A stretch of DNA of 64,000 nucleotides. Source: a virus. Its lineage: Duplodnaviria > Caudoviricetes. Below, piece by piece: positions 6,141-61,201 of this stretch. Each line of letters starts with the position of its first letter. Position 1 is the stretch's first letter. The translations under genes were made by a program, and so were the position numbers. Location: the IMG/VR virus record IMGVR_UViG_3300020046_005360. The stretch is one strand, 5' to 3'. The notes below the pieces were generated by a model. It saw nothing but the letters and a program-made list of their open reading frames with translations, had not been told where the DNA came from and ran no database searches.

Positions 6141-6187
6141 TTTATAAATTTATATTTGCCAGGTATTAATAGGATATAGGCTAATCC

Positions 6188-6358
6188 TTATTTATTAGGT
6201 ACTAATTTAGCTTTTTGAGTATCGTAAAATCCTTTCTTAGCTAAATGTTCTAAGATTTTTATATCATTAGAGTCAATACAATGAGCATTACTAATAATTT
6301 TTCTACAGAGACGCATTACTTCATCTCTTGGAGCGGTAATAATACTATCTTTAGGCAT
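6188..6358 (-). CDS. hypothetical protein (likely start MPKD)
   Basis: ORF packed between neighbours. Confidence 0.4.
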   Translation of the reverse strand: MPKDSIITAPRDEVMRLCRKIISNAHCIDSNDIKILEHLAKKGFYDTQKAKLVPNK

Positions 6359-6360
6359 AA

Positions 6361-6570
6361 TTAAAGTATTCCCGTTGCTGCAAAATATCCTTTTAGAAAG
6401 TAAATAGGATAACACATTACTTTTCCTTCGTAACCACCTTGTTTTATTTCTTGAGTTTTACATTTAACTCCCTGTTTTTTAGCTTCTTGAAATACTTGTT
6501 GACCAAGTTCCATACCTGCTCTTCTACCTAAATATTCATACAAGCTCGCGTAATCTACATTTTGTTCCAT
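6361..6570 (-). CDS. small conserved phage protein
   Basis: SLYEYLGRRAG..G.V..YP; operon packing. Confidence 0.55.
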   Translation of the reverse strand: MEQNVDYASLYEYLGRRAGMELGQQVFQEAKKQGVKCKTQEIKQGGYEGKVMCYPIYFLKGYFAATGIL

Positions 6571-19836: not shown

Positions 19837-20193
19837 TTATATTTTTCTTAGATATTTCGGGTCAATTCTAGTATTACTTCCTTCATCACTTTCAAAAGCT
19901 CCATCATAATATATTCCTTCTTCCCCTTTATCTATATATAAAGAAGCAGCATCTGGTTCCAATTCTAATATATTATCGTACCCGAGTTCATCTAACTCAT
20001 ATTTAGGAACCGCACTACTACTAAATTCATTGTATATATCTCTATCTTGATAATCACCTTTATCTCCACTAAAATGATATACGTCTGTTAATATAACACA
20101 ACGATCCCCATCTTTTACAGGTGATGGATTGTGAACTTTTATTTCAGTAAGTATTCCAGCTAATTCTTGTAATCTTTGTATTTCGTTACGCAT
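19837..20193 (-). CDS. putative capsid-targeted internal protein (RLQELAGI-TE-IKVHNP leader)
   Basis: Leader shared with 26865, 44671, 46137; acidic cargo. Confidence 0.6.
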   Translation of the reverse strand: MRNEIQRLQELAGILTEIKVHNPSPVKDGDRCVILTDVYHFSGDKGDYQDRDIYNEFSSSAVPKYELDELGYDNILELEPDAASLYIDKGEEGIYYDGAFESDEGSNTRIDPKYLRKI

Positions 20194-26864: not shown

Positions 26865-27140
26865 TTATTTTATATTAAACCATTTCATATCTATTCCAGA
26901 TATGTTATTATGGGGAGTTTCTAAGTATTTTTCATAGTTTTTATACTTATTACTAACCACATAAATGCGATCATCTTGGATAGCGACATCTCTATCTAAT
27001 AATTTACCACTTTTATCATAAATTCTACCTTTTCCTGTTGGGGTTTTTTTAAGAATAAAAGGAAGGGTTGGATTATTCACTTTTATTTCAGTAATAATAC
27101 CAGCTAATTGTTGAAGACGTTCTATTTCGTTATATTTCAT
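26865..27140 (-). CDS. putative capsid-targeted internal protein (RLQQLAGI-TE-IKVNNP leader)
   Basis: Shared leader; inserted between baseplate genes. Confidence 0.6.
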   Translation of the reverse strand: MKYNEIERLQQLAGIITEIKVNNPTLPFILKKTPTGKGRIYDKSGKLLDRDVAIQDDRIYVVSNKYKNYEKYLETPHNNISGIDMKWFNIK

Positions 27141-43796: not shown

Positions 43797-44678
43797 TTAT
43801 TTTATAGACTCTTTAATTACTATTTTAGTGAAATTAAAAGATTTTCCTACAGGGGAAGCATTATTTACATTTATTGTATTAGGAATTATATAACCTTTAA
43901 CTGTAAGAGTCATTTCTGATTTAGAAGCTCTATCTCCCCCACTTTCTACTGATATAGGTGTTGGGTATGAATCTATACTTGCTCTAAATTGGAATCTTTC
44001 TTTATCTCCCCAATATGAATCAGAAGCAAATTCTATAGCTTCTATAAGTTTATTCATATGTTCAACATAATCTGTGTATATAATAAGTTTATATCTTATT
44101 GTGATATAATCTGGTATAATTCCTACTTTATATTCAACACTTTTCTTTTGGTTTTGCAGAACAGAAAAGTTATCATATGAGTTTCTTTGACTATAACCCT
44201 GTTTAAAATATTGAACGTTGTTTACTTTATTACCATCTAATTTATTTCCCAACGTTCTATCTTTATCAAAACTTTCACGTTTAAGTATTATTAGGGGTAT
44301 TTGAGCTTTGCCGTTTTTATCGCGATAAAAGCCGTCTTTTTGTATTGACTTCCATCTTTCAGGGGAACCATATATAACAGGTACTCCGCGCGTACTCCCG
44401 TTGATTTCAACAGTGGGTCTTATATAATTTTCTATATAATATATTATAGCAGAATCATGATCTTCAAGAGATATTTGAATATTATTTGTAGTATCTCCTT
44501 TCAAAGATATTTCATTCGCCCTAACAAAATCAGGTTGACCAGGATTAGTATACTTTAATTCAGGATTTGAATTATCGTAAGGCTGTAGTTCTTGTTCAGG
44601 AATTTGATACGGTTCAGGAAGAGCTTTCAAGAACTTATCTCTATTTATGGGAGTTGGTTTATCTCTATTTTTAGCCAT
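43797..44678 (-). CDS. tail terminator/sheath stabiliser (gp15-like)
   Basis: VPVIYGSPERW, PLI..R, PDY; follows the neck genes. Confidence 0.7.
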   Translation of the reverse strand: MAKNRDKPTPINRDKFLKALPEPYQIPEQELQPYDNSNPELKYTNPGQPDFVRANEISLKGDTTNNIQISLEDHDSAIIYYIENYIRPTVEINGSTRGVPVIYGSPERWKSIQKDGFYRDKNGKAQIPLIILKRESFDKDRTLGNKLDGNKVNNVQYFKQGYSQRNSYDNFSVLQNQKKSVEYKVGIIPDYITIRYKLIIYTDYVEHMNKLIEAIEFASDSYWGDKERFQFRASIDSYPTPISVESGGDRASKSEMTLTVKGYIIPNTINVNNASPVGKSFNFTKIVIKESIK

Positions 44679-45636
44679 TATTAATTATTTTAATAATATC
44701 ATCGGAATATAATTCTTCATATTCGTATTTATCTCCGGGACTATATATCTCTATTCTTAATTCCCCTTCTTGTGGATTTTTATCTATTTCTATTACTTCT
44801 CCCGTTTTTTCTCTTAATCCAGTTCCCTCATCAAAAATAAATTTATATTTTTTACCTATTTCTAAATCATTTATATTAACTAAATTTGGATTATTTACTT
44901 TAATTTCGCTAAAAGTAGAGTTTTGGTCTGCTACAGTATATTCTTGTAGTGTTAAATCATATCCTGCACGTAAAGCTTCAGATTGAGCTTGTTTAAAATT
45001 TTGTGGCAGCTCTCCTCCAAAGAAATCTAAGATATGCATATAATCATTAAATTTTTTTAATTGAGGTTGGTTGACTTTGATTTCATTAAGTATACCAACT
45101 AAATTTTCTTTTAATATTCTTAAATCTTCTTTTACTACAGTACGTGAAAATTTATTTCTTATTGATTTTAAATCTTTTACTAATTGGATTAGTTTAGGAC
45201 GTGAATGGAAATCTTTAAGTTGGACTTTTTCAAATTTACTTATTAAGTCAGTTAAATCTTTATGGATAGTAGAATCGTCTACTTCTTTTTTAACACTCCA
45301 TGTTACTGATTGTGTTTCAGGGTCTATATCTGTTACAGTTGTTCTTCTACCACCTGTTTCAGATGATTGACCAATGTTAAAATCGGAAACGTCTTCATTC
45401 AAATCATCATATTCTTTCCCTGTTCTTTGTTTAAATAATTCACGGGCGTATTCACTTACTTCAGATTCATTTTCTACCTCTTCATCCTCAAAATCGTTAC
45501 CTCCTGAAAATTCACCAACTTCATCTAAAGCTTGTCCCCAGCATTCATCAAATATTTTTTCATAATTTAATGGGTTGTTTACTTTTATTTCTGTAATTAT
45601 ACCAGCTAGTTGCTGCAGTCTTTTTATTTCGTTCAT
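44671..45636 (-). CDS. putative capsid-targeted polyprotein with three EIKVNxP modules
   Basis: RLQQLAGI leader; ITEIKVNNP, LNEIKVNQP, FSEIKVNNP. Confidence 0.6.
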   Translation of the reverse strand: MNEIKRLQQLAGIITEIKVNNPLNYEKIFDECWGQALDEVGEFSGGNDFEDEEVENESEVSEYARELFKQRTGKEYDDLNEDVSDFNIGQSSETGGRRTTVTDIDPETQSVTWSVKKEVDDSTIHKDLTDLISKFEKVQLKDFHSRPKLIQLVKDLKSIRNKFSRTVVKEDLRILKENLVGILNEIKVNQPQLKKFNDYMHILDFFGGELPQNFKQAQSEALRAGYDLTLQEYTVADQNSTFSEIKVNNPNLVNINDLEIGKKYKFIFDEGTGLREKTGEVIEIDKNPQEGELRIEIYSPGDKYEYEELYSDDIIKIINNG

Positions 45637-46136: not shown

Positions 46137-46427
46137 CTATGTATTTTTAGAATATTCTTCTAATTCGTTATATATAGTTTTTAAAATTTGAGGGTCTAAA
46201 TCAAATATTACCCCCTTATAGCCATCCTCATAGTCTTCCCAATTAAATCCTAGTGGGATATTATCATCAAGTATATCTCTTGCTGCTACATCATAATGAT
46301 CTTCCCCTTCATTAACATATAATTTATTATATAAATCCCATACTTTTTGAGGAGTAATATTTGGATTATTTACTTTAATTTCAGTAATGATACCAGCTAG
46401 TTGTTGTAATCGTTTTATTTCGTTCAT
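46137..46427 (-). CDS. putative capsid-targeted internal protein (RLQQLAGI-TE-IKVNNP leader)
   Basis: First 22 aa identical to 44671..45636; acidic cargo. Confidence 0.6.
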   Translation of the reverse strand: MNEIKRLQQLAGIITEIKVNNPNITPQKVWDLYNKLYVNEGEDHYDVAARDILDDNIPLGFNWEDYEDGYKGVIFDLDPQILKTIYNELEEYSKNT

Positions 46428-46429
46428 AT

Positions 46430-47611
46430 CTATCCTAGGAAAATCATCATTGGGTAACCTATCATTATTCCGGCCATAGAATCTGCTTCCTCTTTTTTAC
46501 GTGCAAGTTGATTTTTGCGGGAAGTTTCATCTAAGTCTCCTCTTAATTTTTCAATTAGTGCTGTTCTTTCACCTAGTGCAGAACTTAATAAATCTTGTTG
46601 ATTAAGAGATACTTCTGCTCCAGGAATTGGGGTAGTTTGGTATTTTCCTCTTATAAGTCCTAACATTTCTTTGGCTAGGGCTAATGTATATTCAAATATC
46701 CAATAACGACCAGGTCCATTTATTTGTGAGTATACTGGATTATTATAAGGGACGTTAGACATATCTGTAACCAAACTATCTCCACTTCCGTAACTTCCTG
46801 ATGGTGCTGTTATTTGTGCTTTTTCACTATTTTTTACATACCTAAAAAATAAATTCATATCATAAGGTGGGATAGGAAATATTTTAAGTTGATTGTTTAT
46901 TAATTCGAAAGAATTTGCTGAACGACGAATATCTTCTCTAAGTTCTATATTTTGTATTACAGCAAGATCTACATTTAAAGGCATTAACATTGAGTATGCG
47001 TCTAATGAACCTCCTGCTAGTGCTCCACCAGCTAAAAGACCATCTCCGAATGCACCTCCCACAATTCCAACACCTTGATATCCAGCAAACTGTTTTGTTG
47101 ATGCAGGTCTACCTTCATAAAATATTTGTTTTATCTCAATACTATCTCCTGGTACTAGTGATGCAGAAGATGAAGCCCACAATTTCATATCATATGATTG
47201 GGATCCTGCAGTCATACTTAAAGTACCACTATAATAAGTTACATTACCTCCAACTCCAACTTCAGAACCGTAATCCTGTGCCATTCGGATTATACTAGCA
47301 TTATTAGGTTGGATTACAACATTATTTACAGAAGAACCCGTTGAAGATGCTTCTAAATTTAGATAATTGTTTCTTATTTGGTATAGGTATACTTCATTAC
47401 CGTAAGTTGTAACAGCTTCTTCGAAACATAAAAAGAACTGATCTGCCCCCATTTCTACATCTAGTGTAGGATATCCGAGTCTTGATGCACAAAAATTAGC
47501 AACTTTTACCGCATCCGAGACGAATTGAGGATCATTATCATAGAAACCAAATGGTGTAGAGGACCCAGAGGTAAATATAGGATTACCAGTCCAAATCAAT
47601 GAATTTGCCAT
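46430..47611 (-). CDS. neck protein (gp13-like)
   Basis: RLGYP..DVE, YTLALAKEMLG.IRGKY..PG..LN. Confidence 0.85.
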   Translation of the reverse strand: MANSLIWTGNPIFTSGSSTPFGFYDNDPQFVSDAVKVANFCASRLGYPTLDVEMGADQFFLCFEEAVTTYGNEVYLYQIRNNYLNLEASSTGSSVNNVVIQPNNASIIRMAQDYGSEVGVGGNVTYYSGTLSMTAGSQSYDMKLWASSSASLVPGDSIEIKQIFYEGRPASTKQFAGYQGVGIVGGAFGDGLLAGGALAGGSLDAYSMLMPLNVDLAVIQNIELREDIRRSANSFELINNQLKIFPIPPYDMNLFFRYVKNSEKAQITAPSGSYGSGDSLVTDMSNVPYNNPVYSQINGPGRYWIFEYTLALAKEMLGLIRGKYQTTPIPGAEVSLNQQDLLSSALGERTALIEKLRGDLDETSRKNQLARKKEEADSMAGIMIGYPMMIFLG

Positions 47612-47612
47612 A

Positions 47613-48269
47613 TTATATTATATTTCTTTTTATTTCTCTGTTATACTTACTACATAAAGGTTGAAGGTTAGTATAATGACTTAATTTAATTAATTCTTCC
47701 TCTGTTTTAGCACTACTTATTGGGATTATATGATCTAGATCCCAAGTTTTATTGAATTCTAAAATTCCATCTTTTGGATTACCATAATTTTCTAATTTCA
47801 TCCAAGGTTCGAATTTAGATTCTATATAATCTTTAAAAATAACCCATTCACAACCTAATATTTGATAGGTTCTAGTTTTTTTCGAATATCCCATATTACG
47901 AAAAGACTCATTAATTCTACAAGCAATTCTATTTTTTAATTTAAATAGGGGATCATTATTAGCTCTATTTCTAAAATATTCTCTATCATACTCTTTCTTT
48001 TGGGGTTTTTGGAAAATCCTAATCTCTTTAAGTTCTTCAGAATGTTCTTTATTATATTGATTAGAATATTCTTTTATAGGAACCTCATTAATTTTATTAT
48101 ATTCTTTTCTATTTTCCCATATTTTTTCTTTATTATCTTCTTTATATTGTTTAGCACAAACTTTACATCTACCCGATAATCTATCTTTTTTAGATTTATC
48201 AGAATAAAAATTACTTAATTCTTTATCCTGTTTACAAATAACACATTGTTTCATATAAATAAATATCAT
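47613..48269 (-). CDS. HNH homing endonuclease
   Basis: CVIC..CKVC; WDLDHIIPIS..HYTNLQPL. Confidence 0.85.
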   Translation of the reverse strand: MIFIYMKQCVICKQDKELSNFYSDKSKKDRLSGRCKVCAKQYKEDNKEKIWENRKEYNKINEVPIKEYSNQYNKEHSEELKEIRIFQKPQKKEYDREYFRNRANNDPLFKLKNRIACRINESFRNMGYSKKTRTYQILGCEWVIFKDYIESKFEPWMKLENYGNPKDGILEFNKTWDLDHIIPISSAKTEEELIKLSHYTNLQPLCSKYNREIKRNII

Positions 48270-48409
48270 TAATCGAATCTTGATGCACAGAATTTAGTTA
48301 CTTTTACAGAATCTGCTATAAATTGTGGATCGTTGTCGTAAAATCCGAAAGGGGTTGAGGAACCGGAAGTAAAAACCGGATTACCCATATATATTACACT
48401 ATTGGCCAT
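48269..48409 (-). pseudogene. orphan 5' end (46 codons) of the neck protein gene
   Basis: MANSVIYMGNPVFTSGSSTPFGFYDNDPQFIADSVKVTKFCASRFD* vs MANSLIWTGNPIFTSGSSTPFGFYDNDPQFVSDAVKVANFCASRLG. Confidence 0.9.
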
Positions 48410-48468
48410 GTTTTATTTTCGTATAAATATTGAAAAGTAAAGGCACCTAGCGGTGCCTTATTTAATCT

Positions 48469-49119
48469 TTATTTTCCATATATATAATCTAATATATCTC
48501 CTACTATACCACTTCTATGGTTTTCTTTAAGTTTAATATGTTCTATACCTTTAATATGTTTAGATAATTCTATTGCGAAGTCTAAACCTGTAACTCCTTC
48601 ATTCGTATCTCTTTGAGATGAATCTCCATTTATTATTATTTTCCCTGATACCCCCAGGCGAGTTAAAATAGCTTCCATTTCAGCTTTAGTCAAGTTTTGA
48701 GCTTCTTCCACAATTAAAATATCATCAACTGTTTTACCTCGAATGAATTGTATTGGGAGGGCTTGTATCTTTCCTGCTTTAACAAATTCATCTATTTTAA
48801 GTCTGTCAGTACATTTATATAAATTTTCAATTAAAGCTTCCATATATGGATTGAATTTATCTTTTAAATCTCCAGGAAGAAAACCTAAACTTTTTCCAAC
48901 TTCAATTGCACTTCTAGATACAAGTATTTTGTCGATCTGTTTTGTGTTTAGAAAATCTAGTGCTGTAATAGATCCAACTAAAGATTTTCCAGATCCTGCT
49001 CTACCTGTAATTATAACTATTTGATTTTCTAAAATTAATCTTTTTGCTTCTTTCTGTTCTTCATTTAATTGAATGTTGTACTTAATTTCACTTTTACGAG
49101 GGCGATTAGGTTCTTTCAT
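48469..49119 (-). CDS. phoH: PhoH-family ATPase
   Basis: GRAGSGKS, LGFLPG, FIRG, EEAQN, TRLG, GDSSQ, HRS. Confidence 0.92.
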   Translation of the reverse strand: MKEPNRPRKSEIKYNIQLNEEQKEAKRLILENQIVIITGRAGSGKSLVGSITALDFLNTKQIDKILVSRSAIEVGKSLGFLPGDLKDKFNPYMEALIENLYKCTDRLKIDEFVKAGKIQALPIQFIRGKTVDDILIVEEAQNLTKAEMEAILTRLGVSGKIIINGDSSQRDTNEGVTGLDFAIELSKHIKGIEHIKLKENHRSGIVGDILDYIYGK

Positions 49120-49179
49120 GTAATTATTTTTAGTTAGACATTTGTCTTATATAAATATTAACGTACAAAAAGAATATTG

Positions 49180-49731
49180 TTAATCCAAATAAGTACCTGA
49201 TTTTTCTCTATTATCTTGCTTAGTAAGTGGTTGGGTGTTTTCGAAATGGAAACATAGATACATTTCTTGTTCATCAAGTAAGTTGAATTTGCATATAGGT
49301 TTGATGTGGTCTATTTCCCAGTAGGTACCATAGTTGTCCCAGGACATTTCCGAAGTGAATTTGGATTCGAGGTAGAGAGTGTAGTCACTGATGTTACATC
49401 CCAAATATTGTTCTGTACTTCTGTCCTTACCGTCTTTTAATCCGTTGTATATTCTTACTCTAATAGATTCTTTAAGTCTTACTAGTGGATCTTTACGACG
49501 TTCTCTAGCTCTTTCTGTTAATTTTTGAGTGCGAATTGCTTTCTTTTCAGGTGATAAATTAGCTAGTCTGTCTTTATGATAATTCCCATTATATTTGTTT
49601 TTATTTTGAGTCTTTTGACAAATTTTACAGGGAAAAGTATGACCATTTTTATGTGATGGATGTTTGGATTTATAATACCCATCTAATGAATAGTCGTTCT
49701 TACATTTAGTGCATGTTATTAATTCCATTTT
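49180..49731 (-). CDS. HNH homing endonuclease (likely start MELITC)
   Basis: CTKC..CKIC; WEIDHIKP..FHFENTQPL..N.EK. Confidence 0.8.
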   Translation of the reverse strand, partial: KMELITCTKCKNDYSLDGYYKSKHPSHKNGHTFPCKICQKTQNKNKYNGNYHKDRLANLSPEKKAIRTQKLTERARERRKDPLVRLKESIRVRIYNGLKDGKDRSTEQYLGCNISDYTLYLESKFTSEMSWDNYGTYWEIDHIKPICKFNLLDEQEMYLCFHFENTQPLTKQDNREKSGTYLD

Positions 49732-49745
49732 TATTGGTAATATAC

Positions 49746-49773
49746 AAAAAGAGGCTTGGATATCCAAGCCTCT
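49746..49773 (-). terminator. terminator after the major capsid gene, overlapping a sigma70-like promoter
   Basis: AGAGGCTTGGA-TA-TCCAAGCCTCT plus U tract; CTTG-N20-TATATT, same spacing as upstream of 19720. Confidence 0.7.
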
Positions 49774-49795
49774 AATTTTTATTCTATTTTATCTC

Positions 49796-51436
49796 TTAGA
49801 TTGAGTTCAAGTCTGCGACCAGAATTTTACCATAGAACTCAGGACGAACCATTTTCTTAGCGTATCTTGTCATAATACCTTTCCTAGGTGTAAATGTTTC
49901 AGGATCGTATACTAATGGAGTAGTCATTACTGGAATATATGGTGCATATACAGCTCCAGTTTCCAAGAATTGATTACCTTTGAATCCCATTAATATCGTA
50001 TTCTCAGTCATATATGGGTTTTTGTAAACTTTATAACGAGAATTAATAGCTCCTACTTTTTGTACACCGAATGCGTAAGATGATTTTTCAACACTACCAT
50101 CTGTATCTGCTGCAAATCCGGGGATTGATTCAAGTACAGTAGCAACTGTTGGAGATACTACCATGAAGTTAGCACCACCTCTTAAAGTTTTCTGATGGAT
50201 TGCATTAGAAACTTTTTGCATTTTAATACCTAGTGTTTGGAACCAAGACATTTTAGTGTAATATAAACCTGCGTTATTTACATTTGTAAATCCACTTCCA
50301 GTATAATCTTGACCTACTTTAGCTGACCAATATTCTGTTGTTGGAGCGTTTTGGATTAACATATCCAAGATTTCCATATCAATCTCTAGTGAGATGTATT
50401 CTGACATTAAACCAGTAACCTCAGCCTCAGCATCGATTGATTGGAATGCATTTAAATCTTGAGAGAACTCTGGAGTCCAGCTTGCTTTTAATTTTTTAGT
50501 TTTAGCAGCAATTGTATCAGATTTCATTTGGATATTGAATTCTGGGATAACGATATCTGTTGCAGAAGCAGCATTAGGAATTGAGAATGTACCTGCTGTA
50601 CTATCTTCATAATCACCTCTGTTATTATCTTTAGTTTGTTTATTATATAAAACTGAAGCTGCTGTTAAAGTAACTGAACCAGTATAGTAGAAATCTACTG
50701 TACCTGCAGCTGTTAATCTTGTATAATTTTGTAATAAGTTTACTGGATTAACACCTGAACCTGATACTACAAACGCTCTTACTCCGTTTACATCAAATGA
50801 TGTTAATGAAGAAGTTGCTACTGAAACTTTATAGATTTGACCTGCAGCAATAGAAGCTGATACAGCTGAATCATAATTTACATCTGCTAATGTAAGTGAA
50901 GATGATGCTACAGTTCCTGAAAATACTCCAGAAGCTGATGCTATTGCGAATTGGTTAGTTGAGTAACCAAACTTACCTGCACCATATAAACCACCATCTG
51001 CGTCATTTGAGAAGATATTATTTTGGCTGTTTTTACCATATAATGAATCTCCTGCGTTAAATGGGGATTTTGTGTTACCATATTGGAAATCTAAGAAGAA
51101 GATTAAACCTGCTGGTAAAGACATTGGTTGAACAGAAACGAATTCTTTAGCGGCGATTTGACCAAATACTTTACGTACTAATGGTAATGCAACGGCTGCG
51201 TATTGTTCTCCATTACCTGCTGTGAATGTAGCTCCACCTTGGTTTGTTGTATTGCTCTCTCTTACTAATTGCTTAGCTTGATTTTCTAGCAACTGAGCCA
51301 TGTGTGCTTTTTCTGTGGTATTTTCGATACCTTCTAATAGACCTGATTTGGCCCATTTACCTGCTAATTTCATAGCTCCAGTTAATTGAGCTTGATATGG
51401 ATCTGCAGATTCTAATAATTGTTGTACTACTGACAT
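49796..51436 (-). CDS. major capsid protein (gp23-like)
   Basis: LLENQ, LVRK, VQPM..P.GLIF, KLKASWTPE..QDL, YAPYIP, F.P..GIMTRYA. Confidence 0.97.
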   Translation of the reverse strand: MSVVQQLLESADPYQAQLTGAMKLAGKWAKSGLLEGIENTTEKAHMAQLLENQAKQLVRESNTTNQGGATFTAGNGEQYAAVALPLVRKVFGQIAAKEFVSVQPMSLPAGLIFFLDFQYGNTKSPFNAGDSLYGKNSQNNIFSNDADGGLYGAGKFGYSTNQFAIASASGVFSGTVASSSLTLADVNYDSAVSASIAAGQIYKVSVATSSLTSFDVNGVRAFVVSGSGVNPVNLLQNYTRLTAAGTVDFYYTGSVTLTAASVLYNKQTKDNNRGDYEDSTAGTFSIPNAASATDIVIPEFNIQMKSDTIAAKTKKLKASWTPEFSQDLNAFQSIDAEAEVTGLMSEYISLEIDMEILDMLIQNAPTTEYWSAKVGQDYTGSGFTNVNNAGLYYTKMSWFQTLGIKMQKVSNAIHQKTLRGGANFMVVSPTVATVLESIPGFAADTDGSVEKSSYAFGVQKVGAINSRYKVYKNPYMTENTILMGFKGNQFLETGAVYAPYIPVMTTPLVYDPETFTPRKGIMTRYAKKMVRPEFYGKILVADLNSI

Positions 51437-51462
51437 AGGTTTTGTTTAATTATATTTTATTT

Positions 51463-52566
51463 TTATTTTACGATACCAGCTAATTGTTGCATTCTAAGTA
51501 CAAAATCACTTTCTTGTGTTGTTACTTGTTCGTTTAATGCTCTTGGAGAAGAACCCGCTGGTCTTGAAGCGCTTCCTCTGTTTTCTCTTAATTGAGTAGT
51601 TGGCGTTGTGATTAGAGATTCTTTTAATGTTAAGAAAATATTCTTAGTTTCATTAATATTTCTTCCTCTGTCTAATGCATTAACTACTTTTACTTTTTGA
51701 GATTCTGTTAAATTTTTAGCTTTAAATATTTTATTTACATATAAAAGTTTAGAATTTAACAAATTCATTTCATTAAGTGATTTTCTTTGTTCTGCTATCA
51801 CTTTTTTAGCCTCTTGGAGTTCAGTTGATTCTGCTCTTAATGCGGATCCGGCTGCTGATCCTCCTGCGGCTAATTCTGCTTTAATTTTAGCTAATACTTT
51901 AGGTCCGGCTTTTTTGATCATTGCAATGATATTATCTAATCCAGCGGCTGCTGTATTTGCAGGATCAATTGATCCACCACCCATTTCAGATAAAACTTCA
52001 TCTAAATTAATATCTTCTTCTTCACTTTCTTCTGACTCAGGTTCAAATTCTACTTCACCTTCATCTTCAAATTCTCCTTCAGGCTCTTCTTCACTTAATT
52101 CTAGTTGAACTTGACGAATAATATCTTTAAGTTCATCCACTGTAATTTCACCTACAACATCATCACCTTCAGCGTCTTCTTCTAATTCTAAACCTTCTGC
52201 TCTTAGTGCCGTACCTGCTGCTGCTCCTCCTGCTTCTAATTCTTTTTTAATTTTAGCTAAGATACCTGGAGTTTTTGCTGCTGCTCCTTTAATCATTGAG
52301 ATTAAATTATCCAATCCAGCTGCTGCTGCACCAGAAGGTTCTTGCATCGCTTCATCAACGGCTCCTTCTTGTCCTTCTAATTCGTTAAGTAATTCATCTA
52401 AAGATACTTCTGATTCTTCTTCCATTTCATTTAATTGGCTTGAAAGCATACTTTTAATTTGTGGGGCGAACGATTCAGCCATAGCTAATTTAGCATTACT
52501 AAATGCGGTTTCTCTAATTTCTTTTGCTTCTGCTACTGCGTCTGCAAAAAGTTTTGGTTTTGACAT
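51463..52566 (-). CDS. prohead core/scaffold protein (gp22-like)
   Basis: Acidic, many L-x-E sites, between protease and MCP; ends RMQQLAGIVK. Confidence 0.8.
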   Translation of the reverse strand: MSKPKLFADAVAEAKEIRETAFSNAKLAMAESFAPQIKSMLSSQLNEMEEESEVSLDELLNELEGQEGAVDEAMQEPSGAAAAGLDNLISMIKGAAAKTPGILAKIKKELEAGGAAAGTALRAEGLELEEDAEGDDVVGEITVDELKDIIRQVQLELSEEEPEGEFEDEGEVEFEPESEESEEEDINLDEVLSEMGGGSIDPANTAAAGLDNIIAMIKKAGPKVLAKIKAELAAGGSAAGSALRAESTELQEAKKVIAEQRKSLNEMNLLNSKLLYVNKIFKAKNLTESQKVKVVNALDRGRNINETKNIFLTLKESLITTPTTQLRENRGSASRPAGSSPRALNEQVTTQESDFVLRMQQLAGIVK

Positions 52567-52761: not shown

Positions 52762-53382
52762 TTATCTTAAGCAGCACATTCCTGTCTGAGAGCAAACAAT
52801 TTCTGATATTATTTCGTTTAATTTATCGTATTTAGAATTAGTTTTTGGTATATAATTTTCATTAAGACCTAAAGGTTTAACGAATGCTCCTTGTGTTGAT
52901 GGTTCTGATACTATATCCCAACAAACTAAAGAAAGGTCGTCTTGAACTTCTACAGTACCTTCACCTAAACTTTGCACTGAACCCATAGCTCTAGATGATA
53001 TACCTATTTGCACTCCACCTTTTACTAATGCTTTTACTATATTACCTGAAGGGGTGTCTAATATTAAAAGCTTAGCTTTTACATCATCTCCATCCCACCA
53101 AACCTCTGTTATTCTGTGGCAAACGTTTTTTAAATTGACAACTTGACTATCAGGGTGATCTAATTCTCCTGTTGCTCTATTTTCAACAACGGGACCATTT
53201 TTATAGTTTTCAATTTCTCTTTCAAGTATATTTTTGGGGTAAATCCTTCCATTTTGATTTTTAGCATCAGCACGTTGAATAATACCTTCAAGAATTAAAT
53301 CACCACTATTATGTTTAATACTCTCATTAATAGATTTAGGGTCGAGTTTAAGTGGAAAGTGTTCTATTAATAATTGCTTCAT
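52762..53382 (-). CDS. prohead protease (gp21-like)
   Basis: NQNGRIYP, GELDHP, GISSRAMGS, DIVSEPS. Confidence 0.93.
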   Translation of the reverse strand: MKQLLIEHFPLKLDPKSINESIKHNSGDLILEGIIQRADAKNQNGRIYPKNILEREIENYKNGPVVENRATGELDHPDSQVVNLKNVCHRITEVWWDGDDVKAKLLILDTPSGNIVKALVKGGVQIGISSRAMGSVQSLGEGTVEVQDDLSLVCWDIVSEPSTQGAFVKPLGLNENYIPKTNSKYDKLNEIISEIVCSQTGMCCLR

Positions 53383-54620
53383 TATACTCTACTTTTAGTT
53401 AATTGAACGCCTTTAGTTCTAGCATTATTTATTATACCAGCAGCTTCATTATCATCTTTAGCATATTGAACATTACCCGCTTTATCTTTTACCACAACAG
53501 CTTCTTCCATACCATATTTACCACTTGTAATTTTATTTAATTCAGTAGCAATTTCATCTAAGACATCATCATCTTCTAAATCATGTTCAGTTAATCCCCA
53601 ATCTTCAACTATTTGTCCTACAATTTTTCTTTGTTGAGGAGTTAATTCATCTAAATCTAATTCAGGAGCTCTTTCACAATCAGAACATTCTTCTCCTTCT
53701 AAATCCTCTTTTAAACTATTCATTAGTTTATACATTTCAGGAACATCATCTTCCTCCCAAATTTCCATATCTATCATATAATCTACCAAATCATCCCAAC
53801 TATTTATAGATAAGACATCTTCATCTTCATTTTCTTGCGAAATTAAATTTTTAAAATTTTGAAACTTTAAAGGATTATTTACTTTTATTTCTTTTAATTT
53901 TTTATTTTGACTTATAAGTTGTTTTCCCCCTGCTTGTTGATTATTATTAAATGTAAATAATATATCTCCTTCATAACCATCTTCTATATTTTCTATTTTT
54001 ACATCATAAGGTTTTCCTAATCGTACTCCAAGTATTCTATCCCCAATTTGAACTTTAGAAGGATCAAAATCTGGTATATATTTATTTAATTTCCATATCT
54101 TGTTGGGGGTATTTACTTTTATTTCTTTTAATTTTTTTAATTGATTTGGAGCAGTAAAGTCTTTTTTTAATTCTTCTGGTCTAAGATTTTCTTTCTCTGT
54201 TTTTTTCTCAGCATCAGAATAACATTTTTTAGTGTAGTAGTAAGGGTCAGAAGTAAGATTTTTTAATACTTTACGTTGTGTTGAAACCATTTCTTCTTCT
54301 GTAGGCATGTTTTGACCAACAGCAAGTTGAGTTAATTCCAATTCATAGTTGATTCCTTTTCCATATTCGTATGGTGAAACTTGGTCAATCGTAAAAGATT
54401 CAATTTCTGGTAGTTTAGGATTTTTATCTGCTTTATATTTTGGGACTAAATCCTTATTTTCGGTAATAATAGATTTTGATTTTAGAATTTGAATGGTGTC
54501 TTTCAACGAGTTAAATTTAGTAATCATAGGAAGTCTAGGATCACGACGTACTTCGTAAAGGAATTTTTCTTCGCTTATAATACCCTGTACTAATTGATTA
54601 TATAGTGTTTGTGCTGTCAT
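53382..54620 (-). CDS. head-region protein containing two EIKVNxP modules
   Basis: KNL..DPYYY; LKEIKVNTP, LKEIKVNNP. Confidence 0.6.
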   Translation of the reverse strand: MTAQTLYNQLVQGIISEEKFLYEVRRDPRLPMITKFNSLKDTIQILKSKSIITENKDLVPKYKADKNPKLPEIESFTIDQVSPYEYGKGINYELELTQLAVGQNMPTEEEMVSTQRKVLKNLTSDPYYYTKKCYSDAEKKTEKENLRPEELKKDFTAPNQLKKLKEIKVNTPNKIWKLNKYIPDFDPSKVQIGDRILGVRLGKPYDVKIENIEDGYEGDILFTFNNNQQAGGKQLISQNKKLKEIKVNNPLKFQNFKNLISQENEDEDVLSINSWDDLVDYMIDMEIWEEDDVPEMYKLMNSLKEDLEGEECSDCERAPELDLDELTPQQRKIVGQIVEDWGLTEHDLEDDDVLDEIATELNKITSGKYGMEEAVVVKDKAGNVQYAKDDNEAAGIINNARTKGVQLTKSRV

Positions 54621-56482: not shown

Positions 56483-58396
56483 TTAGATTATTTGGTCTTC
56501 ATTTAAGATATTATCCTCATTTAACATATTACTTTCTTCAAATAATTTAGTTTTACGGGGAGGAAATATATCTTTATTTTTGGCATACACAGAATATGTA
56601 TTTTCTAATCTTAATTCACCTTTTTTAGTTGGAGGATTTAAACTATCTCCATCACTATTATCTTTTTTCATACCATACGAACCTGTACGATCTTTTCCTA
56701 ACCCACTTTCTTGAGTGTTATAAGTTGAAGCGTGTTCTTTAGGTCTACCTAAAATAGCATCAGGTACTACGTCAGATTCAGGATCATATCCTTTAGGTAC
56801 ACCACCACTTCCAGGATATCTATTTTTTGGTTGTAAAGAGGCTAAATGTGCTGGAGTTCCATATACTTCATTACTTTCATTCGGATCGTTCCCTTCACTT
56901 TCAATTTGAGATATTCTAAACTTACGTTTTTTATCTTCAATAATAAGATCTCTATATTCCTCATATTGATTTTGAGAAAAGTGGAAAATATTATCGTAAA
57001 CCCAATCTGATGGTACTAAATTATTCTCAAGCAATGTAACAGCTAAATCTGCTTTTTCTTTAAGTAGTGCTGTTCTTTCTTGGTCATAAATTATAGAAGG
57101 AGTAGTTAAGGATAAGGTAAAATTAGTTAATGCTTCACCATCATATCCTTGGGCATATAAATGCACTAAAGCTATTTTAGTTAATTCAGATACTAATATT
57201 TTTTGTATACGTTCTACTGTACGAGCAAATCTAATATCTTCTGCAGCAAGTGTACTTTTACCACTTAAATCTTTTTCATATCCAAAATAAGCTTTTGGAA
57301 CTTTTAATGCAGCAAACAATTTATCTCTAAGGTAATTGATATCATCAATAGCCATATATTCAAGGCCTTTTGTAGTATCAATTTTAGTTGCAGTATCATT
57401 ACCCCTTACCGGAATATAGAAATCTTCTAATATATTTTGTATATTATATTTTAAATTATATTCTCCCGTTTTAGGATCAACATATGGAGTTTTTTTCATC
57501 TTATTGATGGTTTTCTGCATATATTGTTCTACCTCATTAGGTGGGATATTACCAACATTTATAAAGAATGTTCTTTTTTCAGGAGCTCTAACTATTCTAT
57601 GAATAAGCATAGCATCCTCCATCAATGTAAGTTGTTTAAATATTTTACGAGCAGGTTCAAGATAACTACGTCCATAAGGAAGATAATTATAATCCGCTAA
57701 TAGGCGGAAATGAGCCATCTCATAATTTTTGAACTCTTGTTTATCACCATTTAAATTATTATAAGCTTGATGACCATATGGAGATTGTTGTGTGGCGTAA
57801 GTAGGATCATATACAAATTTTACTTCCATAGGATTTTCAGGGTTTTCACCTTCTAATCTTACTATAGTATATGATGAATATGGTATAACATTATATACAC
57901 CATACTTTTCTGATATTTCTAATTTAAGATAAAAATCACCATATTTACACATATTTCTAGTCCACGACCATAAATTGAATTCTATATTTAAAATATCATA
58001 AAATAGATTGTATAATATTTTTTGCATAGTTTCATCTGAACTACGTATTTGTAAAGTTTCTCCAAAATCATTTCGTAAAGATACTTCATCTGATATTATA
58101 TCCAGAGTAGAAGCTATAATAGAATCAGTATCCATAGCTTCATAATCAGTATATAACTGTACTCTTGTTGTTGGGACTTGATTTATACTATTATATTGGT
58201 TTCTTCCAGATGTAGTGTAAATTTTGTTATATCTATCGTGTTGGGAATTTGTAACTAATTCTCCTTGTTTTTGGACATCATTAATATCCACAACTTTAAG
58301 TTGGTTACCTCCTGTATTGTGAAGTACTACATCTGTAGAGAATAATTTCTCTATTTTTTGAAAAAACGTCTTATTTTGTTTTGGAGTTTCTTCCAT
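56483..58396 (-). CDS. portal protein (gp20-like)
   Basis: LMEDAMLIHRIVRAPEKR, VGNIP, EDFYIPVR, ALKVP, EDIRFAR. Confidence 0.96.
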   Translation of the reverse strand: MEETPKQNKTFFQKIEKLFSTDVVLHNTGGNQLKVVDINDVQKQGELVTNSQHDRYNKIYTTSGRNQYNSINQVPTTRVQLYTDYEAMDTDSIIASTLDIISDEVSLRNDFGETLQIRSSDETMQKILYNLFYDILNIEFNLWSWTRNMCKYGDFYLKLEISEKYGVYNVIPYSSYTIVRLEGENPENPMEVKFVYDPTYATQQSPYGHQAYNNLNGDKQEFKNYEMAHFRLLADYNYLPYGRSYLEPARKIFKQLTLMEDAMLIHRIVRAPEKRTFFINVGNIPPNEVEQYMQKTINKMKKTPYVDPKTGEYNLKYNIQNILEDFYIPVRGNDTATKIDTTKGLEYMAIDDINYLRDKLFAALKVPKAYFGYEKDLSGKSTLAAEDIRFARTVERIQKILVSELTKIALVHLYAQGYDGEALTNFTLSLTTPSIIYDQERTALLKEKADLAVTLLENNLVPSDWVYDNIFHFSQNQYEEYRDLIIEDKKRKFRISQIESEGNDPNESNEVYGTPAHLASLQPKNRYPGSGGVPKGYDPESDVVPDAILGRPKEHASTYNTQESGLGKDRTGSYGMKKDNSDGDSLNPPTKKGELRLENTYSVYAKNKDIFPPRKTKLFEESNMLNEDNILNEDQII

Positions 58397-58420: not shown

Positions 58421-61201
58421 TTAGCCTAATAACCAGGTTAAGTCTTCTACACCCCCATGTCCATCTTGCATGCGATATGGATTTTGTTCATATGGATTAT
58501 TATATACAGCAGGAGTAGCATAATTTACACTTGTGAAACCATTTAATACTGCTCTCGATAATTCTTCACTTTGTTTTTGATACATTAGTGTTGTTTCTCT
58601 CAAGAATAAAAATATTCCAATAGGTAAAACTAAGTCATCATTATGACCTTGTTGTGCTTGTGGTCTACCATTTTTATATATAAATGTTCTAATCTCTTCT
58701 AATGCACGTTTTGAAAATATATCAACTGAATATTCGTTCATATACGAAATTAGTTTTGAGATGACAAGTGGTCTTGTCTTTTGGGTCATAGAAAATCCAG
58801 GAACCATACCTACATTACTATTATACTTAGATAAATATTGCTCCGAATCAATAGGGTTGTCTATTTTTGGAGAATAATATAAGTTTTTATATTCTTTGTC
58901 TATCATTCTACCTACAACGTCCCATCCTATACTTGCATTTTCGATAACACACAAAGCGTTATTCCATTCAACACAAGCTGCATGTATAACATTAGCAAAA
59001 TCTTTAGTAGGTAATTGAGATTTAAATTCAGCTACTTGACGACATAATTCTATATCAAAAACATGGAATGTAGAACTGTCTGCTCCATCTCCACGAGCAA
59101 CATCGGCAATAAGTGCGTAAGATCGAGAATAATCAGGTATTTCAAATATCCAATATTCTCCATTTAACCCTCTACGTTCAAGAGGTTCTCGTGCTATATT
59201 TTTAGTATAATAATTTAATACATCAGTATCGATGACCGATTCACCACTCGTGATGAAATCTGCGTCACAATTATGTACTATACCATACTCTGTTACATAA
59301 GTGTGTGTATTTTCAACTTCAAAATTATATACTTGTATTTTTTCTGATGAAGGATTTAATTGTAATATAGTTAATGGAATCCCATTATCAATCATAAATT
59401 TAGTAGTCTTTCTATTATTAACTACTGTATTATAATTTTTTATTCTCTTACTAAATATTTTTTCATTCGAATCAATCTTAGTATTACTATAAGTTAATAT
59501 AGTACTATTTTTACATTGATATTCTTTTCCTAATATAATATTAGTACCTTCTTTTTTATTTATTGATATTGTTGTATTATATAACCCCAACAAATTACTT
59601 ATATATAAAGAATCATACACTAGTCTTTCAGATGTTAAACCTAATTTACAATTGTAATCAGATTTTAACATTCCATCTCCAACCATTATACCATCAAGTA
59701 TACCTTTTAGAGTTTCTTTATTACTATTTTCCCATACAAAAGAACTTATATGTTTATCTTGACAATATTTTCCTCCATCAATACATAACTCTATGAATTT
59801 AAGAAATATTTGGTTTTTAACATATAAATTAGCTCCTTTATCTCGTTTACTAAGGTAATGAGAAAATATACTTATATTAAACTTTTTATTAATATAATTT
59901 TGTAATATTAAAGGCCATGAATGTTCTTCACTCTCTGTTTCTCCATTATACGAAAATGAAACTACATTATTCCAATAACTACCTTCAGATAAAAAACAAC
60001 CTATAATAAAACCTAATTCATAATCAAATTCTATATGTCGATGTACGTAAGATTTTTTATTAATCCAAATTGATTCATCATTAGATTTTAGAGGAAAATA
60101 TTGTGGATTATTAACTTTGATATAATCTAATAAATCTATTTTGGAAGGATTATCATACTGATTTATGTTAGTTGGAAATAACTGTATATATTGATTATGA
60201 TCATATATACTTTCAACTGTAGTCCATTTATTAACAATGTTTAAGAAAGGATGATTACCTGTTGTATATTTTTGAATATTATTAATCCCATTTTTGATTT
60301 CATATAAATTGTTTTCCTCTATATGATTAAATGTTTTTAATACCTTATTAAAAGTTCCATCATGACTTAATACTATATCTCCTTCTTGGATGTCTTTAAT
60401 ATATTTAGGTCCTAATTTTGTATACACAATTGTATCTCCTGAGAAACATTCTTGTGCTGCATGTTTTACACCTAAATCTCTATCTTGTTGGTCTCTCCAA
60501 GTTTGGTCTCGTTCTGGATGGACAGTCCAAGGAAGTAAAAGTGGAACAAAACTGTTTAATTTCTCTTGTGCTTTGGTAAATTCTTTATAAAACCAATTAC
60601 CCGTTCCATTTGGTGATGATAATGCGATACAAGAACCCCCAGTAGCTAGGGTTTGTTGAGCACCAGTAAAGATTCTTTCAATATTATCAATAAATGCGGC
60701 CTCATCTATTACAAGTAAAGTAACGGCTTCAGATCTTGATGCATTATCAGTTGCGGGTTTAGCTTGTATTTGAGAACCGTTTACTAACTTAAGTAATAAT
60801 TTATTATTCTCTGTATCTTTTAATCTTAACCAAGATGGAAGTTGATCGTATGAAAATCGTACTTTAGTAATTAAGTTTTTCGCTGTATCTTGCGTAGTAG
60901 CTAATACAAGAATATTCTTATCCTTATGGAATAACATTAACCAAAGTGAGAAAGCAGAAACTAGGGTTGATATACCTAGCTGCCTCGATTTATTAATTAT
61001 ACTCCACTCCCCCTTTTGAAAACGCCTTAATAGTGTTTCTTGGAATGGATATAGATTAAATAACATCCTACCTCGTTGTGGATGTTGTATATAATAATAT
61101 TTTTTACAGAAGTATACAGGGTCACTGGCACATTTATAAAATTCGTCTTTAACTAATTCCTTAAATGATTTTTGTGGTATTATATTTTCTTCTTGTGCCA
61201 T
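58421..61201 (-). CDS. large terminase (gp17-like) with intein
   Basis: LYPFQ, KSRQLGIST, IDEAAF, SSPNG, ADVARG, HNDDL. Confidence 0.96.
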   Translation of the reverse strand: MAQEENIIPQKSFKELVKDEFYKCASDPVYFCKKYYYIQHPQRGRMLFNLYPFQETLLRRFQKGEWSIINKSRQLGISTLVSAFSLWLMLFHKDKNILVLATTQDTAKNLITKVRFSYDQLPSWLRLKDTENNKLLLKLVNGSQIQAKPATDNASRSEAVTLLVIDEAAFIDNIERIFTGAQQTLATGGSCIALSSPNGTGNWFYKEFTKAQEKLNSFVPLLLPWTVHPERDQTWRDQQDRDLGVKHAAQECFSGDTIVYTKLGPKYIKDIQEGDIVLSHDGTFNKVLKTFNHIEENNLYEIKNGINNIQKYTTGNHPFLNIVNKWTTVESIYDHNQYIQLFPTNINQYDNPSKIDLLDYIKVNNPQYFPLKSNDESIWINKKSYVHRHIEFDYELGFIIGCFLSEGSYWNNVVSFSYNGETESEEHSWPLILQNYINKKFNISIFSHYLSKRDKGANLYVKNQIFLKFIELCIDGGKYCQDKHISSFVWENSNKETLKGILDGIMVGDGMLKSDYNCKLGLTSERLVYDSLYISNLLGLYNTTISINKKEGTNIILGKEYQCKNSTILTYSNTKIDSNEKIFSKRIKNYNTVVNNRKTTKFMIDNGIPLTILQLNPSSEKIQVYNFEVENTHTYVTEYGIVHNCDADFITSGESVIDTDVLNYYTKNIAREPLERRGLNGEYWIFEIPDYSRSYALIADVARGDGADSSTFHVFDIELCRQVAEFKSQLPTKDFANVIHAACVEWNNALCVIENASIGWDVVGRMIDKEYKNLYYSPKIDNPIDSEQYLSKYNSNVGMVPGFSMTQKTRPLVISKLISYMNEYSVDIFSKRALEEIRTFIYKNGRPQAQQGHNDDLVLPIGIFLFLRETTLMYQKQSEELSRAVLNGFTSVNYATPAVYNNPYEQNPYRMQDGHGGVEDLTWLLG
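59270..60448 (-). mobile_element. intein (393 aa) with LAGLIDADG endonuclease
   Basis: AQE|CFSGDT ... VYNFEVE..HTY..VHN|CDADF; GCFLSEG and GIMVGDG blocks. Confidence 0.93.

Follow-up and report, generated by a model that had tools for sequence, protein, structure and literature searches.

Introduction

The capsid-targeting sequence (CTS) of phage T4, reportedly described by Mullaney and Black in 1996, is the known system against which we compare a peptide encoded in a 64,000-nucleotide stretch of DNA from a tailed virus (Caudoviricetes; IMG/VR record IMGVR_UViG_3300020046_005360), called the window below. The peptide is an N-terminal leader shared by four genes of the window, and its core recurs at the C-terminus of the putative scaffolding protein of the same virus. 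How T4-type phages select their head proteins is still unexplained. Here, the leader can be recognized from its sequence as the same element as the scaffold anchor, the predicted protease sites of the two being in mirror-image order, and the question is narrowed to whether the two share a receptor and whether this receptor belongs to the shell or to the core. The shared peptide suggests how such phages may load extra proteins into their capsids.

In T4, the CTS (MKTYQEFIAE) is found on the internal proteins IPII and IPIII, a related propeptide is found on IPI, and the gp21 protease removes it (PMC9026906, PMC9958956). In a 2023 review, the targeting mechanism was called "mysterious" and the core structure was described as unresolved (PMC9958956). 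Like the CTS, the leader is a short N-terminal peptide, probably a propeptide, on unrelated small proteins and ends in (I/L)-x-E. The head genes are also of the T4 type, with a gp21-type protease, a putative gp22-type scaffold, and a gp23-type coat, and the set of cargo proteins varies between relatives. Unlike the CTS, the leader is longer (16-20 aa) and copies the C-terminal anchor of the scaffold. Judging by its sequence, it appears to be a previously undescribed form of the known T4-type targeting, which differs by this copying of the scaffold tail.

Scaffold C-terminal coat-binding domains are known in P22 gp8, phi29 gp7, and herpesvirus pre-VP22a (PMC9546572, PMC5644958). The present locus resembles these systems in having a conserved terminal helical element, a flexible tether, and a variable helical acidic scaffold; to our knowledge, natural reuse of their element as a cargo tag has not been described. 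The cargo-loading peptides of encapsulins, reportedly introduced by Sutter and colleagues in 2008, are also short terminal peptides on diverse cargo, and their binding site is on the inner surface of a shell with the HK97 fold. They differ from the leader in being usually C-terminal and uncleaved, in having an unrelated motif, and in operating in a system with no scaffold protein.

In phage 80alpha, an 11-residue helix and a 5-residue hook of the scaffold bind the N-arm of the coat protein, and this element is copied by the CpmB protein of the satellite SaPI1 (PMC5644958). The scaffold tail of the window has a similar layout in an AlphaFold2 (AF2) model, an 11-12-residue helix followed by a 5-residue hook. 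CpmB is the nearest precedent for scaffold-tail copying: in both cases a second protein copies the terminal helix and the hook (RIIK in 80alpha), and CpmB enters the procapsid at the coat-binding site of the scaffold. Unlike the leader, the CpmB copy is C-terminal, belongs to the satellite, and serves as an alternative scaffold that changes the capsid size. CpmB is no cargo tag, the copy is not found on many unrelated proteins, and it is not removed at an adjacent Glu. A search of the accessible literature found no paper describing a CTS that shares sequence with a scaffold tail.

A Leader Shared by Four Genes and the Scaffold C-Terminus

The motif R[LM]Q[QE]LAG occurs exactly five times in a six-frame scan of the 64-kb window. 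Four of these sites are the N-termini of minus-strand open reading frames (ORFs) with the common pattern M..NEIxRLQ(Q/E)LAGI(I/L)TE. The fifth corresponds to the final 13 residues of the ORF 51463-52566, FVLRMQQLAGIVK, directly followed by the stop codon. Comparison of the four leader-bearing proteins with Pfam and PHROGs matched no family. Thus, one short N-terminal peptide is common to four genes of the window whose bodies have no shared family. These genes and the head genes to which they are compared are as follows.

46137-46427, minus strand: leader-bearing candidate cargo gene 1, 96 aa, pI 4.3; 16-residue leader at 46380-46427
44671-45636, minus strand: leader-bearing candidate cargo gene 2, 321 aa, pI 4.6; leader at 45589-45636, the same 16 residues as in gene 1
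26865-27140, minus strand: leader-bearing candidate cargo gene 3, 91 aa, pI 9.5; leader MKYNEIERLQQLAGIITE at 27087-27140
19837-20193, minus strand: leader-bearing candidate cargo gene 4, 118 aa, pI 4.4; leader MRNEIQRLQELAGILTE at 20143-20193
51463-52566, minus strand: putative scaffolding protein, gp22-like, 367 aa, acidic, helical; located between the S77 protease and the Gp23 major capsid protein
51466-51516, minus strand: C-terminal anchor of the scaffold, QESDFVLRMQQLAGIVK; helix 351-362, then the AGIVK "hook"
49796-51436, minus strand: major capsid protein (MCP), Gp23 family, 546 aa; Pfam E 1.5e-72
52762-53382, minus strand: prohead protease of the T4 gp21 family; Pfam Peptidase_S77 (S77), E 3.3e-33
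53382-54620: 412-aa protein of the head module, with two LKE↓IKVN sites (here and below, the arrow marks the predicted cut)
56483-58396: portal (PHROG portal)

The similarity between the leaders and the scaffold tail was assessed in two ways. By BLOSUM62, the scaffold 10-mer scores 31-36 against the four leaders, and the next best six-frame position scores 22. In addition, hidden Markov models (HMMs) of the leader and of the scaffold tail were built from relatives only, with the rows of the window excluded. The leader HMM retrieves from the window the four leaders (E 2e-13 to 4e-10) and then the last 12 residues of the scaffold (E 3.4e-4), with noise starting from 0.28. With the scaffold-tail HMM, the scaffold is the top match, and the next matches are the four leaders and no others (E 0.0035 to 0.33, of which just the first two fall below 0.01), ahead of noise at E 1.0. 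Chance is excluded as the source of this match. Thus, the six-frame scan and the reciprocal HMMs confirm the first-pass annotation of the window, made from the sequence without database searches, which had reported that the genes with starts at 46427, 45636, 27140, and 20193 share a leader and that the scaffold C-terminus carries its core.

The DNA encoding the four leaders contains many synonymous differences, with Arg encoded by CGA, AGA, or CGT, Leu by TTA, CTG, or CTT, and Ile by ATC, ATA, or ATT. Because the leader DNA differs at synonymous sites, selection acts on the leader peptide. A DNA repeat or a regulatory element was also considered as a reading of the leader and was rejected due to the same differences.

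The 367-aa protein occupies the gene-22 position of the T4 order 21-22-23. It has no Pfam or PHROG match, and hhalign gives just a weak alignment with T4 gp22 over 56 columns, which include the shared LTESQKxKV (probability 28%, E 6e-4). Calling it a scaffold is reasonable in view of its location between the S77 protease and MCP genes and of the LTESQKxKV shared with T4 gp22. In the AF2 model, it consists of long helices and disordered acidic linkers with a low predicted local distance difference test score (pLDDT). Residues 351-362 (QESDFVLRMQQL) form a helix predicted with moderate confidence, which precedes the five terminal residues AGIVK. Upstream of this helix is a disordered low-pLDDT linker of ~30 residues (around residues 320-350). 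Thus, the AF2 model and the relatives together indicate that the scaffold ends in a conserved amphipathic helix, which is attached through a flexible tether.

Conservation of the Two Peptides in Related Phages

The phage collection contains no DNA nearly identical to the window. Among named phages, the closest MCPs are those of Flavobacterium phage vB_FspM_immuto (53% identity) and Microcystis phage Mel-JY01 (50%); further relatives are the uncultured huge phage LR756508 (47%) and Rhodothermus phage RM378 (38%). The main sample of relatives comprised 80 IMG/VR loci, with MCPs 60-91% identical to that of the window.

In 77 of the 80 loci, the scaffold ends with ..(F/A)(V/I)xR(M/W)Q(K/Q/T)(L/I)AGI(K/I)(K) and the stop codon, the remaining three scaffolds being cut or unresolved. 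The scaffold tails of immuto (..SRWQKLAGIIK) and Mel-JY01 (..ERMKKLAGIVK) also carry the motif, and looser but related tails are observed in distant relatives (..SRMQKLADIS in LR756508, ..LKTLAGRKAK in LR756511, and ..LERIKRLAGL in RM378). The tail is among the most conserved parts of the scaffold, the mean column identity of the rest being 26%. Since the motif is present in 77 of the 80 scaffolds and in every other relative examined, including genomes that have no leader genes, a scaffold origin of the leader motif is plausible.

In total, 49 leader ORFs (38 distinct) were found in 31 of the 80 loci. They encode unrelated proteins of 82-560 aa, all of them lie on the MCP strand, and many are located between the portal and MCP genes, within the head module. 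Whole related genomes contain 0-4 leader copies. Immuto, whose host is Flavobacterium sp. LMO8, has two leader genes (immuto35A_42 and immuto35A_187), both starting with MKKQILSEQF(K/R)RMQ(F/K)LAGIITES.., and a direct scan of the whole genomes of Mel-JY01 and RM378 revealed no leader copies.

For a residue-by-residue comparison of the two peptides, 206 leaders and 59 scaffold tails were aligned on the Gly residue. At positions -8 to +1, the leaders have (I/V)(K/R)R(M/L)Q(Q/K)(L/I)AG(I/L), and the scaffold tails have (V/I)(A/S)R(M/W)Q(K/Q)(L/I)AGI. The R, Q, A, and G residues are conserved at 91-100% in both groups, and the shared 10-residue core is Φ-x-R-(M/L)-Q-x-(L/I)-A-G-(I/L). The flanks differ: upstream of the core, QINE in the leaders corresponds to DxF in the scaffolds, and downstream, I-T-E in the leaders corresponds to the stop codon of the scaffold. 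In the AF2 model of the leader, helix 2-10 (NEIKRLQQL) is broken at the same Ala-Gly as in the scaffold tail. The leader-only HMM also matches the scaffold C-termini in three related genomes. In LR756508, the scaffold tail has undergone a G-to-D substitution (RMQKLADIS), whereas G is kept in the leader-like copies.

Leader Proteins in Protein Collections

An exhaustive search of 1.84 billion (1.84e9) representative proteins with the leader HMM yielded 1483 clusters at E<=1e-3. We examined 162 proteins, comprising the best 150 of this search and earlier matches. In 157 of these 162, the motif is located within the first 20 residues, and the consensus of the leader is MK(Q/P)(I/L)NEIKR(M/L)QQLAGI(I/L)(T/N/K)E↓. 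The bodies of the leader proteins (n=146) fall into 103 groups unrelated by BLAST, with a median length of 99 aa; the pI is below 5.5 for 120 of the 146. Thus, the data support the leader being a portable module on unrelated proteins, in an arrangement that is conserved across a large clade.

Pfam domains are found in few leader proteins: Imm5 or Imm5-like twice, NT5C once, and DUF5661 once. The Imm5 immunity and NT5C 5'-nucleotidase domains hint that some cargo may be injected counter-defence or nucleotide-metabolism proteins. A homologue search with the leader produced 19 matches, none of them named in the source databases. With 1483 clusters, the leader proteins make up a very large and varied set of proteins that are probably injected, mostly unknown, with a few resembling Imm5 immunity proteins.

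Five of the collected proteins (P0020, P0022, P0026, P0076, and P0129) have two motif copies or internal copies only, each followed by (I/L)xE, e.g. ..EILRMQKLAGIIPE↓VKVNNP... Proteins with multiple or internal motifs resemble polyproteins in which several cargo modules are joined, every module having a separate anchor. In P0024, P0034, P0066, and P0106, a Met residue stands right at the internal leader, and these proteins may be fused gene calls.

Predicted Protease Sites

Cleavage by gp21-family proteases takes place behind the Glu of a short motif, (L/I)-x-E in the case of T4 (PMC9026906). Among the 162 leader proteins, Glu is found at position G+4 in 152, and I, L, or V at position G+2 in ~95%. 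All four leaders of the window end with ITE or LTE, and the window encodes a gp21-family protease; the Peptidase_S77 protein at 52762-53382 is presumed to be the enzyme cutting after (I/L)-x-E. Thus, the predicted site at the leader Glu fits the phage's own gp21-type (S77) protease.

In scaffolds, the corresponding site is on the other side of the motif. In 47 of the 60 distinct scaffold tails, [LIV]xE is located exactly six residues before the motif Arg (..PIVE↓xxDxFVxRMQKLAGI..), and the scaffold of the window has LNE eleven residues before the motif. Because (I/L)xE follows the motif in leaders and precedes it in scaffolds, the peptide would be detachable in both protein classes. The protease would split a peptide of ~16-20 residues from the body in each class, the arrangements being NH2-anchor-IxE↓-cargo and scaffold-IxE↓-anchor-COOH. 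Most scaffolds of the 80 loci also have a second conserved block, (I/L)KE↓S(V/I)GFASK(P/A)AG, ~25 residues upstream of the anchor; the C-terminal tether of most scaffolds thus has two conserved Glu sites.

Another recurrent sequence, E↓IK(V)N(x)P, stands directly after the leader Glu in all four cargo genes of the window. Two more copies (xxE↓IKVNxP) are found inside the cargo gene 44671-45636 (at 45070-45084 and 44893-44907), two inside the gene of the 412-aa protein 53382-54620 (at 53877-53891 and 54111-54125), and a further copy, without the Glu, at 60104-60121. Among the relatives that have leader genes, only the closest (L031 and L033, MCP 82-86% identical) show this sequence after the leader. 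The relative L029 (MCP 91%) has ENETNNP at that place, and more distant relatives have other residues. This looks like a second, clade-specific layer, either the P' side of the protease site or a module boundary.

Proposed Function and Alternative Explanations

We regard it as probable that the leader, 16-18 residues long, targets proteins to the capsid as a cleavable propeptide and does so by means of the anchor of the scaffold itself, the two peptides having a shared receptor and a shared protease. From the comparisons above, we infer the following course of docking, packaging, cleavage, and ejection, including the nature of the receptor. As the prohead assembles, a single kind of receptor inside the shell would be the docking site of both the scaffold tail and the cargo leaders. 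Analogy with the scaffolds of 80alpha, P22, T7, SPP1, and herpesviruses makes the inner face or the N-arm of MCP the most likely receptor. Unrelated small, mostly acidic proteins would thereby be co-assembled into the prohead. The gp21-type protease would then cut behind the Glu at G+4 (ITE↓), freeing the cargo, and would cut the scaffold at the mirror-image (I/L)xE↓ just before the anchor, freeing the scaffold body. The cargo would remain in the head and would probably be ejected with the DNA, like the internal proteins of T4.

The first-pass annotation had described the leader as a coat-binding helix borrowed from the scaffold as a loading signal. The portable module, the shared 10-residue core, the Glu site, and the clade-wide conservation agree with this description, while coat binding and packaging are still what we infer from them. 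If the proposed function is true, the leader could also be used as a natural tag to bring foreign proteins into T4-like capsids. A wider generalization is an "anchor-and-cut" code used in a large clade of uncultured T4-like phages. Anything joined to the helix-and-hook (Φ-x-R-M-Q-x-L-A-G-I) via (I/L)xE would dock on the scaffold-binding site of the coat and be released by the prohead protease, so that loading would be competitive mimicry of the scaffold. Such a code would be the first account, visible in the sequence, of how a T4-type CTS works. We propose this code tentatively, as a possibility with the balance somewhat against it.

Several observations weigh against the leader being a targeting propeptide that mimics the scaffold anchor. 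Covariation of the leader and scaffold motifs is not visible within genomes, the core being nearly invariant. The motif is not N-terminal in all metagenomic proteins, some of which carry it internally. The gene 19837-20193 adjoins replication and repair genes (endonuclease VII, UvsX-like) and not structural genes, and since these are its neighbors, its late expression is only assumed. A literature search found no virion proteomics for this phage or for immuto. The T4 CTS is unlike the gp22 tail (..VSVYAKVASRF) and is not among the best N-terminal matches to it in T4. Finally, the T4 literature places the affinity of the CTS in the scaffolding core and not in the shell (PMC9026906).

The comparison with T4 thus has two sides. 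The best explanation of the leader is that it is the functional counterpart of the T4 CTS in a distant T4-like clade. At the sequence level, the leader HMM has no match in the T4 genome at E<=10, and the leader is not alignable to the T4 CTS by eye. Because the T4 CTS does not resemble the gp22 tail, mimicry is not general in the T4 superfamily. Hence, the analogy drawn in the first-pass annotation holds for the function and fails for the mimicry. A candidate reading of the T4 CTS as the same kind of scaffold-tail mimic was dropped, because a scan of all Met-start N-termini of T4 with the gp22 tail missed the CTS of the internal proteins, and only a weak Φ-x-x-Φ resemblance was observed. The best T4 N-terminal match to the gp22 segment SVYAKVAS is MILYAKVSS in Trna.2 (gene trna.2, T4 72628-72915), which is probably a chance match.

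Because the T4 literature places the CTS affinity in the scaffolding core, the receptor could be the scaffold itself. The motif would then be a helix of scaffold-scaffold association, by which the tail of a gp22-like subunit docks elsewhere on the core, and the leaders, still cleavable targeting sequences, would insert cargo into the scaffold lattice. Besides this T4 assumption, the N-terminal helix of the scaffold is a candidate receptor in view of its own strong conservation, and the internal positions of the motif fit a helix-helix packing element. However, the terminal helix of the scaffold contacts the N-arm of the coat protein in all cited HK97-fold systems with structures (80alpha, P22, T7, SPP1), and the classic coat-binding arrangement is that of a helix held at the end of a long flexible tether. 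We therefore consider binding to the core rather unlikely.

Docking of the protease is a much weaker alternative, and we give it very little credence. Here, the shared helix would recruit or regulate the gp21-type protease, as an exosite or an inhibitory propeptide, with no capsid targeting. The (I/L)xE site always adjoins the motif in both the scaffold and the cargo, and both are expected substrates of the protease. However, other expected substrates, namely the MCP propeptide and the 412-aa protein 53382-54620, have no motif, and, according to the literature, very little besides the Glu motif is required by proteases of the gp21 family. Moreover, this explanation does not account for ~100 unrelated small proteins with the motif.

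That the leader has no capsid role, serving localisation, stability, or translation or having arisen incidentally when the 3' end of the scaffold gene took part in recombination, agrees with the position of gene 19837-20193 beside the endonuclease VII and UvsX-like genes and with the link of the cargo proteins to virions coming from sequence, but is highly improbable given the synonymous divergence combined with strict conservation of the peptide, the retention of the motif and the downstream Glu across 1483 clusters, the co-orientation of leader genes with head modules, often inside them, and a hydrophobicity too low for a signal peptide.

Organization of the Head Module

The window has a G+C content of ~29%, and nearly all its genes are on the minus strand. 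Its T4-type head module encodes the portal, the 412-aa protein, the protease, the scaffold, and MCP. Between the MCP and adaptor genes are an HNH endonuclease gene, the second one in this region, and a PhoH-like gene (49180-49767 and 48469-49119, respectively); PhoH occupies the same place in immuto and Mel-JY01.

The gene 46430-47611 is head-tail adaptor-like (PHROG 211), and the 46-aa ORF 48269-48409 (MANSVIYMGNPVFTSGSSTPFGFYDNDPQF..) is a diverged copy of its N-terminus. The other HNH endonuclease ORF, 47613-48269, lies exactly between the 46-aa ORF and the adaptor-like gene. The arrangement at 47613-48409 resembles the trace left by the insertion of a homing endonuclease in which the target gene was partly duplicated. 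In Mel-JY01, a gene for ribosomal protein bS21 is located between the prohead protease and the scaffold (6179-6406); phage-encoded bS21 is the subject of a preprint (10.1101/2021.10.11.463225).

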